This document shows positions 1 to 64,000 of a stretch of DNA of 64,000 nt, one piece after another; the stretch's first letter is position 1; every line of letters starts with the position of its first letter. The position numbers were made by a program. Location: assembly GCA_965228475.1 (NCBI GenBank), contig OZ245817.1, positions 3,616,001-3,680,000 on the forward strand, in the 5' to 3' direction. The stretch is from Myxococcota bacterium. Lineage in GTDB: Bacteria; Myxococcota_A; UBA9160; JAFDDA01.

Positions 1-3000
1 AAGGGCCCCCACGAGTGCAGCGACGCGCTGAAGCTCTTCAAGAAGCCCGTCAGCATGGTCTCGAACTACTGCGCGACGGGAACGGACGCCTTCCGCTACG
101 GCGCGATGGCCGTCGCCTCGGGCATGCACGACGTGGTGCTCGTCGTCGGCTACGACAAGCCCAAGGACCGCGGCGTCTCGGGCCCCTCGGTCATGATGGA
201 CGGCGTCCGCGACCTGCCGAAGACACCCGCCGGCTGGTTCTCCCTGTGCGCCGCCACCTACTTCGAGAAGTACGGAGCGGGCCGGGACGACCTCGCCAAG
301 ATCGCCATCAAGAACCACCACAACGGCACCCTCGCGCCGAACTCCTTCCTGAAGCGCGAGATCACGCTCGAGGACTATCAGAAGGCGCGCCTCATCTCCT
401 GGCCCTTCGGGCTCTACGACTGCGCCGCCCAGACCGACGGCGCCGCCGCCGCCATCCTGGTGCGCGCGGACCTCGCCAAGGAGTTCCGCGCGGACCCGGT
501 CTACGTGAAGGCCGTCTCGATCCAATCGGGACCGAACCCCCAGAAGGACCCGACCAACGACTTCCTCTCCTGGAAGCCCACGGGCTGGGCCGCGACGGAC
601 GCCTACGCCCAGGCCGGCGTCGGCGACCCGCGTGCGGAGATCGGCGTCGCCCAGGTGCACGACTGCTTCTCGCTGACCGAGCTCCTGAGCTACGAGGACC
701 TCAGCTTCTGCGAGAAGGGCGCGGCCAAGGAGCACATCGCGAGCGGGGAGTTCGAGCTCGGCGGCTCGCTTCCGGTGAACACCGACGGCGGCCTGAAGAG
801 CTTCGGCCATCCGACCGGCGCCACGGGCGTGCGCATGATCTACGAGAACGTGCTCCAGCTCCAGGGCCGCGCCGGCGAACGCCAGGTCCCGGGCGTCGAG
901 GGCAAGCTCGCGCTCTCCCACAACATCGGGGGCCACCCCACCGCCTGCGGCATCGCGATCCTCGGCCGCTAGGAGTCCTGCATGGATTTCGAGACCCTGC
1001 GCTACGAGGTCGACGGCGGCGTCGCCACGATCACGCTCGACCGCCCCGAGCGCCACAACGCCTTCAACCTCGCGATGGCGGACGAGCTGAAGGCCGCGTG
1101 GGAAGCCGTGGAACGCGACGGCGAGGTCGTCTGCGCCATCGTCACGGGCGCGGGCGAGAAGGCCTTCTGTACCGGCATGGACGTCGCCGACGTGGCGTCG
1201 GGCGACGCCCGGGCGACCGGCTTCCTCCCGCGGGAGGAGGCACCCTGGTTCCAGCTCACCGCCATCCAGAACCGCTGCTGGAAACCCGTCATCACCGCCA
1301 TCAACGGCATGTGCTGCGGCGGCGGGCTCCACTTCGTGGCCGATACGGACCTCCTGCTCGCCGCCGAGCACGCGACCTTCTTCGACACCCACGTGAAGGT
1401 CGGGCTGATTGCGGGCCTCGAACCCGTCGGGCTCGCGCGCCGCATTCCGCTCGAAGCGGTGCTGCGCATGTCCTTCCTCGGCGGCAGCGAGCGCATGAGC
1501 GCCCAGGAAGCCAAGGAGATCGGCCTCGTCGGCGAGGTGCTGCCGGGCGACCAGCTGCTTCCCCGCGCCCGGGAGCTCGCCGCGAAGATCGCCGAGCACT
1601 CGCCCACGGCCCTCGCCCGCTCGAAGCAGTGCATCTGGGAGAGTCTCGACACCGGCCTCGATCAGGCCCTGACCGACACCTGGAACGCGATCGGCGAACA
1701 CTCGAAGTGCGCGGACCTCGAGGAAGGGGCCAAGGCCTTCGTCGAGAAGCGCAAGCCCCGCTGGGTGCCCTACACCGGGGAGTAGCGATGTACGAGAACC
1801 TGCTCTTCGACGTCCGCGACGGCATCGCGACGATCACCCTGAACCGGCCCGACAAGCTGAACGCCTACACCACCGAGATGGGCGACGAGGTCTACGACGC
1901 GTTCCAGAAGGTGCGCGGCGACGACGCCGTGCGTTCGGTGATCCTCACCGGCGCAGGCCGGGGGTTCTGCGCCGGCGTGGACCTCGAGCACCTGAAGGCG
2001 CACCAGGCCGGCGGCAAGGCCGGAAGCGGCCCGAAGCTCGGCGAGGAGGCCTTTCTCAAGAAGCTCCCCCTCGAACTCCTCGAGTTCCCGAAGCCCGTGA
2101 TCGCCGCCGTGAACGGCGCCGCCATCGGCGTCGGCATCACGATGATCCTCCCCTGCGACCTGCGCATCGCCGCCGCCGGCGCGAAGCTCGGCGTGACCTT
2201 CGTGCGGCTCGGCATCCTGCCGGGGCTCGGGAGCACCCATCTCCTGCCCCGGCTCGTCGGCTCGGCCCGGGCGCGGGAGCTCGTGCTCACCGGGCGGAAG
2301 TTCACGGCCGAGCAGGCGGCGGCCTACGGGCTCGTGAACGAGGTCGTTCCCGGCGACGCCCTGCTCGCCCGGGCGCGGGAGATCGCCGCGGAGTTCGCCG
2401 AGAGCAAGCCGGCCGTCCTCGCCGCGGCCAAGCGCGCCCTCCTCTACGGCGAGGAACACGGCATGGCCGAGTCGATGAGGAACGAGCAGACCGAGAGCGC
2501 GGAGCTGCGGAAGCGCTAGGCCGTCTCCTTGGCCTCGGGCCGGCTGCGGACGCTCGCGAGCCGCTGCCCGGCGAACACGACCGCCGCGGCGATCCCGACG
2601 GTCAACCCGAAGCTCAGCCAGGGTCGGTCGATCGCCATCGCCCCGAGTGTCGCCATCACGAAGCCCGCGGGCACGGCGCCGACCGCGATGGCCAGCAGCA
2701 CGTGGCTCGTCGGCATGCGCGAGAGCCCCGCGATCAACACGACCCACTCGGCGGGGCCGCCCACGGCCTTCCCGAGCACGATCGCGGTCAGGCCGTAGCG
2801 GTCGTAGAAGCCCTCGGCGCGCGCGACGTCCGCGTCGCCGACCACCCAGCGCGCGCCGCGCGGGCCGAGGAAGCGGACGAGACCGAACCCGATCGCACCG
2901 GCGAGGGTCGAGGCGGCGCTGCCGATGAACCCGCCGAGGAGCGGCCCGTAGATCACCCCGAGCACGAACATCGCCGGTGCCGTCGGCATGGGGAGGACCG

Positions 3001-63000: not shown

Positions 63001-64000
63001 TTGTAGGCCTGGACGCCGGCCCGGTGGAAGTCGACGTCCTGGTTCCCCATGAAGTGGTACATGGTCCGCTGGGAGGGATAGAGGAACTCGGCGTCGACGC
63101 CGTCGAAGTCCATGTCCTCGAGCCGCGCCTTTCCGTCGAAACAGCCCTTGCGGATCGTCTCGTAGGTGTACCCGCGCCACTTGATGTCCTCGTACCGCAT
63201 GCCGGGCGTCGCCACGAGACCGAGGTACATGAGCGGCTTGCCTTCGCCGAAGAACCAGGCGTCGCCGCCCTCCTCGTCCTTCACGAGCTTCGGCGCGCGC
63301 TCGTGGTACTGCTTCGGCAGCCACGTTTCCCAGATGTGGGGCGGCTCCACGGTGTGGCAGTCCGCGTCGATCAGCCGGTACTCGCGCATGGGGTCTCTCC
63401 TCGAGACGCCCTGCGGCGGGCCGCAGGGCGGAATCTGACGGTGTGTCAGATTCTATCCCAGGGCCTCGGAGAAAGGGAACCCCGTCCCGGCCCGGCGCGG
63501 GCCGGGGAGGAAGAACCGGAACGATTCCGACGGCTTCGGCCCTAGGGGTGGGCCAGAGCCGCGACCGTTCGCTCGATCGCCCAGTAGCCGGCCAGGCCGC
63601 CTAGACCGTACGCCGCGGCGTGGGCGCGCCAGGCGGAGGGAACCGCCTGCGCGGGCCCGCGCAGGGCCCGGGCCGCGGCCAGGGCCACGGCCACCAGCCC
63701 GAGCTGGCCGAGTTCGATGCCGAGATTGAACGCGACGAGCGCCGTCACGATCTCCCCGCGCGGCAGGCCGATTTCGGAGAGCGCGCCGGCGAACCCCAGG
63801 CCGTGGAGCAACCCGAACGCCCACGCCATCCGCCAGGGCCGTTCGCGGAAGCCCGCGAAGGATCGCCCTTCGCGCGGCACCAGCTCGACGGCCAGCGCGA
63901 GGAGCGTCGCGGCGATGGCCACCTCGGCCCAGCGCGAGGGTACGGGCGAATGGCCGAGTGCCGCGATCGAGAGCGTCACGCTGTGCCCGAGCGTGAAGGC

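Follow-up and report, generated by a model that had tools for sequence, protein, structure and literature searches.

Steroid side-chain and ring C/D catabolic genes, and the missing canonical ring A/B enzymes, in an uncultured Myxococcota_A bacterium

The genome of an uncultured, marine-type Myxococcota_A bacterium contains predicted genes for steroid side-chain removal and HIP (ring C/D) catabolism, and the evidence supports this set as genuine. It likewise supports the conclusion that this 96%-complete, single-contig genome lacks the canonical ring A/B enzymes of the 9,10-seco route. As no known enzyme for opening the first two rings was found, the genome points either to an undescribed ring A/B route or to dependence on neighbours. 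The explanation placed first here, held at slightly below even confidence, is that the same cell opens rings A/B by O2-dependent, CoA-thioester chemistry in which ring A would not be aromatised. In this explanation the window, i.e., the whole 64,000-nucleotide stretch of DNA that was analysed, is the right-hand portion of an order-conserved steroid (sterol/bile-acid type) catabolic supercluster of ~190 kb and would provide two conserved candidate modules. The survey's finding had called steroid catabolism new for Myxococcota; in agreement, literature searches located no published report of it in Myxococcota or UBA9160.

Side-chain and HIP genes

The assembly is a single 5.006-Mb contig with an estimated completeness of 96.14%, in which our own gene calling gave 4349 genes, 56 of them within the window. 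The survey had claimed close homologues for side-chain removal and ring C/D breakdown, and curated models bear this out. A full HIP module is located outside the window at C1:3507689-3538879, where FadD3, IpdAB, IpdC, EchA20, and FadA6 are clustered. The FadD3 model NF005801 scored 745 bits (cut-off 657), EchA20-type PRK07938 366 bits (cut-off 260), and FadA6-type PRK07801 704 bits (cut-off 591). IpdA matched PDB 6CO6 with 359.9 bits, IpdB and IpdC have the expected domains, and the SDRs PRK07791, PRK07856, and PRK07831 each exceeded their own cut-offs. The side-chain set comprises a C26 monooxygenase, a steroid-acyl-CoA ligase (model below cut-off), a FadA5 thiolase, and the ChsH/Ltp2 aldolase system. 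The FadA5 equivalog NF005889 reached 602.8 bits (cut-off 515) and Ltp2-type PRK07855 625 and 536 bits (cut-off 469). Additionally, the best PDB matches of one P450 are CYP125 and CYP142 (294 and 263 bits), and DUF35 proteins were found. The window itself holds three P450s, TetR regulators, Ltp/DUF35 pairs, and acyl-CoA dehydrogenases (Table 1). Its content consists mostly of generic CoA-ester genes, and the genes that are most diagnostic for the finding are located beyond its borders.

The gene set resembles the cholesterol catabolism that Mycobacterium and Rhodococcus encode in their KstR/KstR2 regulons (HIP pathway of Crowe et al. 2017, PMC5380842, included) in its CYP125/142-like P450, FadD19-like ligase, FadA5, Ltp2, and ChsH/DUF35 proteins. 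The likeness extends to FadD3, IpdAB, IpdC, EchA20, FadA6, SDRs, and FadE pairs as well as to F420-type LLM oxidoreductases, with CofD present. However, canonical KstD, KshA, HsaA, HsaC, and HsaD and any HsaE-like match are lacking, and the host is a Gram-negative member of Myxococcota_A, in which an RND/HpnN-like transporter was seen, as was a PqiB-like (MCE-type) protein.

Table 1. Features of the window (positions count from its first letter)
Feature	Position	Strand	Evidence
Ltp-type (SCP-x-like) thiolase	1..972 (start 185 bases before window)	+	PRK06157 412 bits full-length (cut-off 403); window part 346.8 bits
Two enoyl-CoA hydratases	982-1785, 1788-2519	+	EchA19 among best models: NCBIfam 191 and 193 bits, below cut-off 400
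TetR regulator adjoining P450 of 8374..9561	7605-8273	-	KstR model weakly matched, 26.6 bits
Cytochrome P450	8374..9561	+	NCBIfam P450 families
Two acyl-CoA synthetases	10052..13014	-	PRK12406 477 bits; second: best model bile acid-CoA ligase BaiB 323 bits, below cut-off 650
FadD19/CasG-like steroid-acyl-CoA synthetase	15859..17565	-	NF052580 (steroid-24-oyl-CoA synthetase) 653.7 bits full-length, cut-off 750; next family 358 bits
Cytochrome P450, not specifically CYP125	21398..22687	-	PDB matches 160 to 194 bits over many P450s, CYP125 and CYP142 included
Aldolase-type pair: Ltp-type thiolase (23420-24628), DUF35/ChsH2 OB-fold protein (24625-25068)	23420..25068	-	PRK07855 258 bits; PF01796 82 bits; PF12172 34 bits
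Eco57I/PglX-like methyltransferase ORF, outside the system	32967..36032	-	PF07669 and NF033451; low-GC island, 0.61 vs ~0.70 elsewhere
Unknown 387-aa protein, acyl-CoA dehydrogenase (IpdE2/PimD-like), acyl-CoA thioesterase II-like	36264..39469	+	
Thiolase-like protein type 1 (TLP1/PRK08257 type)	39476..40852	-	NF006103 326 bits, below cut-off 757; PF18313 matched
Amidohydro_2 protein, 271 aa, N-terminus without HxH or DxH	40942..41757	-	PF04909 112 bits; 4-base overlap with Rieske gene stop
KshA-like Rieske non-haem-iron oxygenase, 324 aa, below canonical KshA tier	41754..42728	-	PF19298 127-129 bits; PF00355 71 bits
Acyl-CoA dehydrogenase, MFS transporter, MaoC dehydratase, two family-III CoA-transferases	47526..52863	-	
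Three SDRs, GNAT, RidA, P450 (55626-56915), Coq4-like protein	52957..58552	.	
Amidohydro_2 protein, 272 aa, non-ARO	58560..59378	-	PF04909 141.8 bits; best PDB match 3IRS (uncharacterised protein) 100.8 bits
Acyl-CoA ligase of trio	59405..61060	-	FadD3-family model 294 bits, below cut-off
Fused double-hotdog (FAS1_DH_region/ChsH-like) hydratase, trio member	61057..62253	-	PF13452 87.5 bits
Amidohydrolase-related dinuclear oxygenase (ARO), PtmU3/DitZ-like, PHHG subfamily	62250..63389	-	PDB: PtmU3 6OMP 137.8 bits (residues 6-373), DitZ 8UYR 104 bits

Canonical and anaerobic ring A/B routes

Canonical ring A/B enzymes were sought by six-frame HMM profile searches with positive controls from same-order relatives, and the results agree with the earlier claim that KshA, KstD, and HsaA are weak and HsaC and HsaD wanting. 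The best HsaA score in the genome was 132 bits with NF045629 against a cut-off of 450, and the best HsaC-type score was 64 bits with TIGR03213. For HsaD, NF045632 was unmatched at E<=1e-30 and TIGR03343 gave at best 52 bits. Profile searches of the genome found no LigB-type dioxygenase, and a strong extradiol dioxygenase of either type is missing. An HsaE-like hydratase was likewise unmatched. Canonical-tier KshA is also lacking, with PF19298 (KshA_C) at 113-129 bits vs 231-242 bits in the relatives G011 and G026, as is canonical-tier KstD, for which NF009478 gave 306.5 bits (cut-off 789; relatives about 520-770 bits). Compared with the canonical enzymes of G026, the best proteins of the genome are 25-31% identical (28.8% for its KstD-like protein against the KstD-tier protein), and HsaC was unmatched at E<=1e-5. 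The positive control G024, which has a tight hsaC-hsaA-hsaD operon, scored 497 bits for HsaA, 314 for HsaC-type, and about 399 for HsaD. The KstD-like gene of the genome under study co-travels with FadD3 in relatives, and its best PDB match is 7P18 (162 bits); it could be part of the HIP module or else encode a true diverged delta-1-dehydrogenase, a point against the preferred explanation.

It is highly improbable that the canonical genes are present and escaped the searches because of an assembly gap or extreme divergence. Completeness short of 100% leaves some room for this, as do the weak family members (KshA-like 129, KstD-like 306, and HsaA-like 132 bits). However, the genome is one 5.0-Mb contig, the six-frame searches had controls from the same order, extradiol dioxygenases of neither type were found, and the same-genus genome G001 is likewise without HsaC-type and HsaD matches.

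Sterolibacterium and Steroidobacter denitrificans open ring A in another known way, the anaerobic 2,3-seco pathway. As outlined in PMC11780191, it employs the 1-testosterone hydratase/dehydrogenase AtcABC and the ring-A hydrolase SRAH, a beta-diketone hydrolase of the Amidohydro_2 family; the breakdown of ring A is proposed to involve a hydrolase, an aldolase, and beta-oxidation. The genome is similar in having HIP genes without Hsa-type ring-cleaving oxygenases, and its cluster also contains Amidohydro_2 proteins and a CoA ligase. PF04909 has 16 matches in the genome, three of them inside the window, all at the family level. In contrast to the anaerobic system, O2-dependent enzymes (P450s, Rieske proteins, AROs) abound in the genome clusters. 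An AtcA-type molybdoenzyme (xanthine dehydrogenase family, PF02738) was unmatched in the genome at E<=1e-5, the same search being positive in 6 of 14 control genomes, and the canonical 2,3-seco route was therefore rejected.

The survey had read the bacterium as a sterol user with a ring A/B route other than the 9,10-seco one. The catabolic set and the missing canonical enzymes hold; a new route of its own is where that reading falls short, cross-feeding on HIP-like acids being a rival. The bacterium would in this case degrade side chains, import HIP-like or other seco-acids from canonical degraders, and never open rings A/B, which is considered unlikely. Consistent with such a life, it has retained the FadD3 equivalog, which ligates free HIP; the free acid thus implied could have been imported, and this counts against the preferred explanation of ring opening in the same cell. 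As Crowe et al. (PMC5380842) point out, a beta-oxidative route inside the cell could yield HIP-CoA directly and would not need FadD3. Furthermore, FadD3 occurs in 32 of 41 genomes of the order, far more than the 7-10 that carry any one ring A/B marker, and MFS, RND, and MCE-type transporters occur within the clusters. However, the full side-chain machinery (CYP125/142-like P450, FadA5, Ltp2) implies that intact sterols are taken up, and side-chain removal alone gives C19 steroids, not HIP. The same supercluster also contains conserved oxygenase/hydrolase modules of unassigned role.

Candidate modules in the window

The preferred explanation assigns ring A/B opening to two modules. In module (i), the ligase adjoining the ARO would make a steroid-CoA thioester, and the ARO, a predicted PtmU3/DitZ-type diiron oxygenase, would hydroxylate a tertiary ring carbon beta to it. 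An Ltp2/DUF35-type aldolase would then break the C-C bond by retro-aldol cleavage, with an enoyl/hydroxyacyl-CoA as the proposed substrate of the double hotdog. Homology of the ARO to PtmU3 and DitZ is full-length, with D-x-H, D-x-P-H, a SIHI strand, and a Glu aligned, and an acyl-CoA ligase is genomically associated as a further likeness. The defining ARO motifs are D-x-H and D-x-P-H-x-[D/E] (PMC13154177), and the family is further marked by a dinuclear Fe/Mn cofactor and O2-dependent C-H hydroxylation. The first motif reads DCH (residues 10-12), where PtmU3 has DSH and DitZ DDH in the alignment, and is kept in 117/120 homologues. The second reads DYPHHG, aligned with DYPHLE/DYPHSD; five of its six positions are kept and the last is Gly instead of Asp/Glu, as in 119/120 homologues, and the metal binding of the ARO may therefore differ. 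Unlike PtmU3 and DitZ (platensimycin/platencin biosynthesis; diterpenoid hydroxylase), from which it differs by an identity of ~30% or less, the ARO stands in a catabolic, steroid-linked setting. A PDB sequence search with the double hotdog was empty at E<=0.01. Among the best 80 ARO loci, all from uncultured MAGs, the ligase is syntenic in 28, the double hotdog in 27, and family-III CoA-transferase homologues are nearby in 14-15; the trio is syntenic in five of the six relatives examined.

The trio could instead be an O2-dependent variant of the last side-chain cycle, with C17 of pregnane-20-carboxyl-CoA hydroxylated and then cleaved by an Ltp2-type retro-aldol step, and would in that case not be a ring A/B system. 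This is possible but rather doubtful. Ltp2 homologues stand beside the ARO in 12 and DUF35 homologues in 10 of the best 80 loci, including MAGs labelled Binataceae, Proteobacteria, and Pseudomonadales, and both also do so in G030 and G017. This association and the FAS1_DH/ChsH-type domain of the hotdog are as compatible with C17 side-chain removal as with ring A/B opening. The alternative also accords with the chemistry of PtmU3, which is reported, in a 2019 JACS paper, to place a hydroxyl on a tertiary ring carbon that lies beta to a CoA thioester. The lack of a complementary distribution of ARO and Hsa genes across genomes is a point against a ring A/B role as well. On the other hand, conventional ChsE/ChsH/Ltp2-type genes are already in the genome, and in G024 a tight hsaC-hsaA-hsaD-hydratase operon begins with the 67%-identical ARO orthologue, which there is not placed with side-chain genes.

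The survey had further noted HpnN-type transport and the lack of a squalene or oxidosqualene cyclase. An HpnN-like RND transporter was seen (674 bits, cut-off 752), located in the cluster as are HpnI-like genes, and the C and N domains of SQHop_cyclase were unmatched at E<=1. These genes fit a quite improbable alternative, in which the clusters serve mainly non-steroid polycyclic isoprenoids (hopanoids, other triterpenoids, diterpenoid acids) whose HIP-like terminal 6-5 ring pair would be served by HIP-type enzymes. It also accords with the 10 proteins of the genome that have both ARO motifs, and the nearest solved ARO relatives, PtmU3 and DitZ, act on diterpenoids (available text of PMC13154177). 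However, FadD3, FadA5, the IpdA-type protein, and the CYP125/142-like P450 score high on steroid-specific models or solved steroid enzymes, and hsaA, hsaC, hsaD, and kshA occur in the same contexts in relatives. The abietane (dit) route requires an extradiol dioxygenase, which is missing here.

In module (ii) of the preferred explanation, the product of the KshA-like Rieske oxygenase would be handled by the translationally coupled Amidohydro_2 protein. The two genes are adjacent in this genome and in 10 relatives. The best PDB match of the Rieske protein is KshA 2ZYL (152 bits, residues 8-312; next family 69 bits), its CxH...CxxH and DxxHxxxxH motifs are visible, and it shares 30.5% identity with the canonical-tier KshA of G026. 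The KshA-like proteins of the genome share with KshA (PDB 2ZYL, 4QDC) the Rieske domain, the KshA_C domain, and the metal motifs. However, they are short (309-324 vs 386-394 aa), reach about half the canonical KshA_C score, and have Amidohydro_2 or ARO genes as partners in place of kshB or kstD. The Amidohydro_2 superfamily includes C-C hydrolases, for example the ring-A beta-diketone hydrolase SRAH.

Distribution across the order

Of 41 genomes, 32 have a FadD3 above its cut-off and 7 an HsaA. HsaC/BphC-type genes reach E<=1e-25 in 10 genomes, the one under study not among them, HsaD reaches about 399 bits in G024 only, and KshA_C 231-242 bits in two (G011, G026). The ARO orthologue occurs in 12 of the 41, two of which (G014, G024) also have HsaA, and about 20 FadD3-positive genomes are without both an HsaC-type gene and an ARO orthologue. 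On gene content, the side-chain/HIP set without ring-openers is thus an order-wide trait and not peculiar to this genome. As some same-order relatives have canonical hsaA, hsaC, hsaD, kshA, and kstD, the steroid catabolism of the lineage is not uniformly non-canonical. The earlier claim of new ring A/B chemistry in this genome overlooked this trait, those canonical genes, and the known 2,3-seco route. A third ring A/B route in this order, oxygen-dependent, CoA-thioester-based, and without aromatisation of ring A, is conceivable but rather unlikely. Hydroxylation would be carried out by the PHHG-type putative diiron ARO and/or the short KshA-like Rieske protein, and cleavage by Amidohydro_2 C-C hydrolases and Ltp2-type aldolases, not by extradiol dioxygenases, with the output entering the HIP pathway. 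In the relative G032, an XdhA-like gene and an Amidohydro_2 gene adjoin FadD3.

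Steroid genes in the window and the surrounding stretch

The studied genome comprises 5,006,157 bases in a single contig (C1), with a completeness estimate of 96.14%; the window covers C1:3616001-3680000. Owing to the many false ORFs at high GC (about 70% in the window), genes were called by a codon log-odds model, which yielded 4349 genes genome-wide and 56 in the window. NCBIfam and Pfam scans reveal a dense set of CoA-ester enzymes in the window. In addition to the tabulated features, these scans identify enoyl-CoA hydratases, five acyl-CoA ligases including the CasG/FadD19-like one, three P450s, five TetR regulators, two family-III CoA-transferases, acyl-CoA dehydrogenases, SDRs and MaoC/hotdog proteins, as well as three Amidohydro_2 proteins at 40942-41757, 58560-59378 and 62250-63389 (Pfam). 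Neither tRNA nor Rfam features are found in the window.

Positions of the features discussed (window coordinates unless a contig or locus is named)
Feature	Position	Match or remark
Ltp-type thiolases with DUF35 partners	1-972; 23420-25068	NCBIfam/Pfam
CasG/FadD19-like steroid-acyl-CoA synthetase	15859-17565	653.7 bits, cut-off 750
FGGY sugar kinase/D-2-hydroxyacid dehydrogenase/class II aldolase-epimerase fusion	17562-21401 (-)	1279 aa
P450, rejected as CYP125/142	21398-22687	not specific to them
Signalling block	25094-29947 (-)	
Low-GC island	about 32000-36200	GC 0.61 vs about 0.70
Island ORF	32967-36032 (-)	1021 aa; Eco57I/N6_Mtase domains, weak BREX PglX match
Rieske protein with KshA_C domain	41754-42728	Pfam
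Acyl-CoA ligase	59405-61060	operon with ARO
Fused double hotdog	61057-62253	PF13452; operon with ARO
ARO	62250-63389	Amidohydro_2, 379 aa
CofD (F420 biosynthesis)	C1:3059226-3060140	296.6 bits, cut-off 257
HIP module (steroid ring C/D breakdown)	C1:3507689-3538879	outside the window
Luciferase-like (LLM) oxidoreductases	C1:3532795-3610109	five genes
HpnI-like glycosyltransferase and HpnN-like RND transporter	L006:11401-12645 and 12704-14899 (C1:3552262-3555760)	transporter 674 bits, cut-off 752; BstA sterol-transporter model 176 bits
P450	C1:3593531-3594775	eight best PDB matches CYP125 and CYP142 (steroid C26-monooxygenase), 247-294 bits
Locus right of the window (L011)	C1:3679442-3697632	
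Examples of proteins with both ARO motifs	C1:280570-281667; 2404617-2405855; 4703983-4705293; 4943098-4944297	
KshA-like Rieske gene beside ARO-type gene	C1:4943098-4945256	
Molybdoenzyme locus of relative G032 (L032)	G032:C48:1-6835	

Most of the diagnostic steroid genes of the 190-kb stretch are located outside the window. Among the HIP genes, IpdA scores 359.9 bits against solved IpdA (6CO6), IpdB has a CoA_trans domain and IpdC resembles NMO/FabK. EchA20-type PRK07938 (366 bits, cut-off 260), FadA6-type PRK07801 (704, cut-off 591), the FadD3 equivalog (745, cut-off 657) and three SDR models of the HIP module all exceed their cut-offs. This gene set agrees with the KstR2-regulon list of Crowe et al. 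in the available text (PMC5380842). For the side chain, Ltp2-type PRK07855 reaches 536 and 625 bits (cut-off 469) and the FadA5 'steroid 3-ketoacyl-CoA thiolase' equivalog 602.8 bits (cut-off 515). On these scores, the HIP and sterol side-chain genes claimed by the survey are genuine. The E-value cut-offs of these profile scans were strict (1e-70 to 1e-90), and thus many genes of the stretch are named by Pfam only, or not at all. PF01073 (3beta-HSD) was rejected as a marker, being non-specific (14 of 14 controls match); its best match here, 114 bits, is not inside a steroid cluster.

Known routes for opening rings A and B

The comparison set consisted of 41 genomes: the studied one, a congener, another member of the family and 38 further genomes from the order. 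A same-order relative, G024, provided the positive control: a tight operon of ARO (amidohydrolase-related dinuclear oxygenase), HsaC (314 bits), HsaA (497, cut-off 450), HsaD (about 398-399, cut-off 400) and an HsaE-like hydratase, from which the NCBIfam accessions for the Hsa searches were taken. HsaA is above cut-off in seven of the 41 genomes; the best match in the studied genome is 132 bits. HsaD reaches ~398 bits in G024 only, with nothing at E<=1e-30 in the studied genome. HsaC-type genes at E<=1e-25 occur in ten genomes, neither the studied one nor its congener G001 being among them. Moreover, BphC/HsaC-type TIGR03213 and BphD-type TIGR03343 reach at best only 64.4 and 51.7 bits in the studied genome, and LigB-type PF02900 has no match there.

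Matches to KshA_C fall into two tiers. The upper one is formed by G011 and G026 (231-242 bits), the G026 gene adjoining hsaA, hsaC and kstD; all other matches stay at or below 153 bits, including three of the studied genome at 113-129 bits. Likewise, at least ten relatives carry KstD at 520-769 bits (the congener at 615), and the single KstD-like gene of the studied genome scores 306.5 bits. When the canonical cluster of G026 (52% GC; proteins taken from plain ORFs) was compared with the studied proteome by blastp, HsaA, KstD and KshA gave 24.7%, 28.8% and 30.5% identity, and HsaC no match at E<=1e-5. The KstD-like gene, whose best PDB match is 7P18, shares synteny with FadD3 in at least seven relatives and may be a true, diverged dehydrogenase. 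Of 42 KstD-like matches, 20 carried a flag for in-frame stops; three orthologues proved to be unbroken ORFs, each with one tblastn alignment, and the flags are read as the stop codons that end the genes.

Without Hsa genes, a strong extradiol dioxygenase or a canonical KshA/KstD, the studied genome is very unlikely to follow the 9,10-seco logic of aromatic meta-cleavage. The dit-type abietane pathway was set aside as well, for want of an extradiol dioxygenase. The earlier observation that ring A/B genes are missing or weak is upheld with same-order positive controls. The lack of squalene-hopene and oxidosqualene cyclases is upheld too, neither domain being matched at E<=1. Of the proposal that the rings are opened by a route other than 9,10-seco, the absence of the canonical genes stands, whereas a new route of the bacterium's own is something we infer.

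The molybdenum enzyme that makes the 1,3-diketone of the anaerobic 2,3-seco route, named AtcABC, belongs to the xanthine-dehydrogenase family. Its domain PF02738 has no match at E<=1e-5 in the studied genome while 6 of 14 control genomes match; thus, judged by gene content, the canonical 2,3-seco route is excluded. The diketone is hydrolysed by SRAH, an Amidohydro_2 enzyme, according to the available text of PMC11780191; Amidohydro_2 matches number 16 in the studied genome. One locus of the relative G032 combines FadD3 and an HsaC-like gene with an SGL lactonase-like gene, a fragment of an XdhA-like molybdoenzyme and an Amidohydro_2 protein of 476 aa, an arrangement that recalls how 1-TDH and SRAH are paired in the anaerobic pathway. 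Several strategies are thus represented within the order.

Candidate oxygenases and a CoA-thioester model

For the 379-aa protein near the right end of the window, the best solved relatives are PtmU3, at 137.8 bits over the full length, and DitZ, at 104 bits. The two belong to the amidohydrolase-related dinuclear oxygenases, whose signature is an N-terminal D-x-H and a C-terminal D-x-P-H-x-[D/E] (PMC13154177). The HMMER alignment places its DCH on DSH/DDH and its DYPHHG on DYPHLE/DYPHSD of PtmU3/DitZ; the protein is probably not a hydrolase-type Amidohydro_2 member. Of the best 120 homologues, 119 retain D[YF]PHHG, and they thus form a distinct PHHG subfamily with Gly in place of the Asp/Glu of known AROs at the last motif position. 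A search of the ESM Atlas gave only 'amidohydrolase family protein' clusters. Ten proteins of the studied genome carry both motifs. One of them (C1:4703983-4705293; DDH and DYPHSD) has the same residues as DitZ, and another is encoded in an operon of TetR, KshA-like Rieske, ARO and acetoacetate-decarboxylase-family genes.

The trio of ARO, double hotdog and ligase is syntenic in five of six relatives' loci (G003, G006, G014, G017 and G030) and not in the sixth, a short contig of G004. The AlphaFold2 model of the double hotdog, built from 8 sequences, is of low confidence (mean pLDDT 46.3). Scanning one genome per species gave 424 ARO relatives. Among the best 80 of these, all from uncultured MAGs, a ligase is found within 6 kb in 28 loci, a hotdog in 27, Ltp2-like in 12 and DUF35-like in 10, the last two including MAGs labelled Binataceae, Proteobacteria and Pseudomonadales. 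Hydantoinase A and B homologues are near ARO in 10 and 8 of the 80. Right of the window, after the ARO operon, follow hydantoinase/oxoprolinase A and B subunits, a sulfatase, a penicillin-amidase-family protein and a multihaem/HEAT/TPR protein; the hydantoinase pair may represent an ATP-dependent carboxylase or lactamase step. In G024 the orthologue (67% identity) opens the hsaC-hsaA-hsaD operon, 79 bases ahead of hsaC, and this placement ties the subfamily to steroid ring degradation. A service of ARO and its partners in C17 side-chain cleavage fits just as well.

In the KshA-like Rieske gene of the window, with KshA as best PDB match, both the Rieske and the mononuclear-iron motifs are intact. 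A 271-aa Amidohydro_2 gene, whose product lacks the usual N-terminal metal motif, shares a 4-base overlap with it, and a TLP1-type thiolase-like gene comes after the pair. The two genes are adjacent in the studied genome and 10 relatives, out of 14 genomes with an orthologue of at least 69% identity. A complex prediction for the two proteins from 10-row alignments scored 0.00 and returned no verdict. Short KshA-like Rieske genes also stand beside ARO-type genes elsewhere in the studied genome, in G001:C51 and in G011:C167.

O2-dependent enzymes abound in the clusters, and the molybdoenzyme that the anaerobic route needs is missing. The most economical model would be an oxygenase route on CoA thioesters in which ring A is not aromatised. 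In it, ARO and/or Rieske oxygenases would place hydroxyl groups on ring carbons, and either aldolases (Ltp2/DUF35) or hydrolases (Amidohydro_2) would cleave C-C bonds. Such a route can be likened to the CoA-dependent A-ring cleavage that reportedly occurs in platensimycin biosynthesis. Comparable steps, by a hydrolase and an aldolase, have been put forward for the 2,3-seco route (PMC11780191). Import of free HIP would fit too, and the retained FadD3 is in its favour. For the oxygenase model, caution is warranted by the spread of the ARO orthologue, present in only 12 of 41 genomes, two of which also have HsaA; some 20 FadD3-positive genomes lack both the orthologue and an HsaC-type gene. The fit to C17 side-chain cleavage and the KstD-like gene call for caution as well.

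Spread of the pathway and other features of the stretch

FadD3 is above cut-off in 32 of the 41 genomes. In an even sample of the phylum, 25 of 101 genomes are positive, i.e. 14 of 16 in the studied order and 11 of 85 others. Together with the Hsa counts, most genomes of the order thus carry the HIP marker without Hsa-type genes and, as far as profiles tell, are without both known front ends. Steroid degraders are listed only among Actinobacteria and Proteobacteria, and two ring A/B strategies, 9,10-seco and 2,3-seco, are described, in the available parts of PMC5380842 and a 2026 TA441 comparative preprint. Listings and abstracts on Myxococcota, myxobacteria or UBA9160 contain no report of steroid catabolism in the phylum, and a term search of two Myxococcota metabolism papers gave no relevant mention.

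The conserved end of the steroid pathway is spread over a whole order of uncultured Myxococcota_A. If the cells degrade sterols by themselves, undescribed ring-opening chemistry with concrete candidate genes is implied; if not, they are evidence that sterol turnover is divided among members of the community. In both cases the result matters for the remineralisation of abundant, persistent sterols and for the choice of marker genes for surveying steroid degraders. Parts of the stretch are present in marine metagenome runs, and no RNA run is among the listed sequencing runs matching it.

Several further features accompany the catabolic genes. The 1279-aa fusion is placed between the FadD19-like ligase and a P450. 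The signalling block comprises a two-cNMP-binding-domain protein, a CHASE2 adenylate/guanylate cyclase and a FecR-domain protein. The ORF of the low-GC island, with no tRNA close by, probably represents a type IIG restriction-modification gene gained by horizontal transfer. The HpnN-like transporter adjoins the HpnI-like glycosyltransferase. Finally, two of the five LLM genes pass the F420-dependent model TIGR03619 and a third matches below cut-off; the mycobacterial cholesterol regulon also has an F420-type LLM gene.
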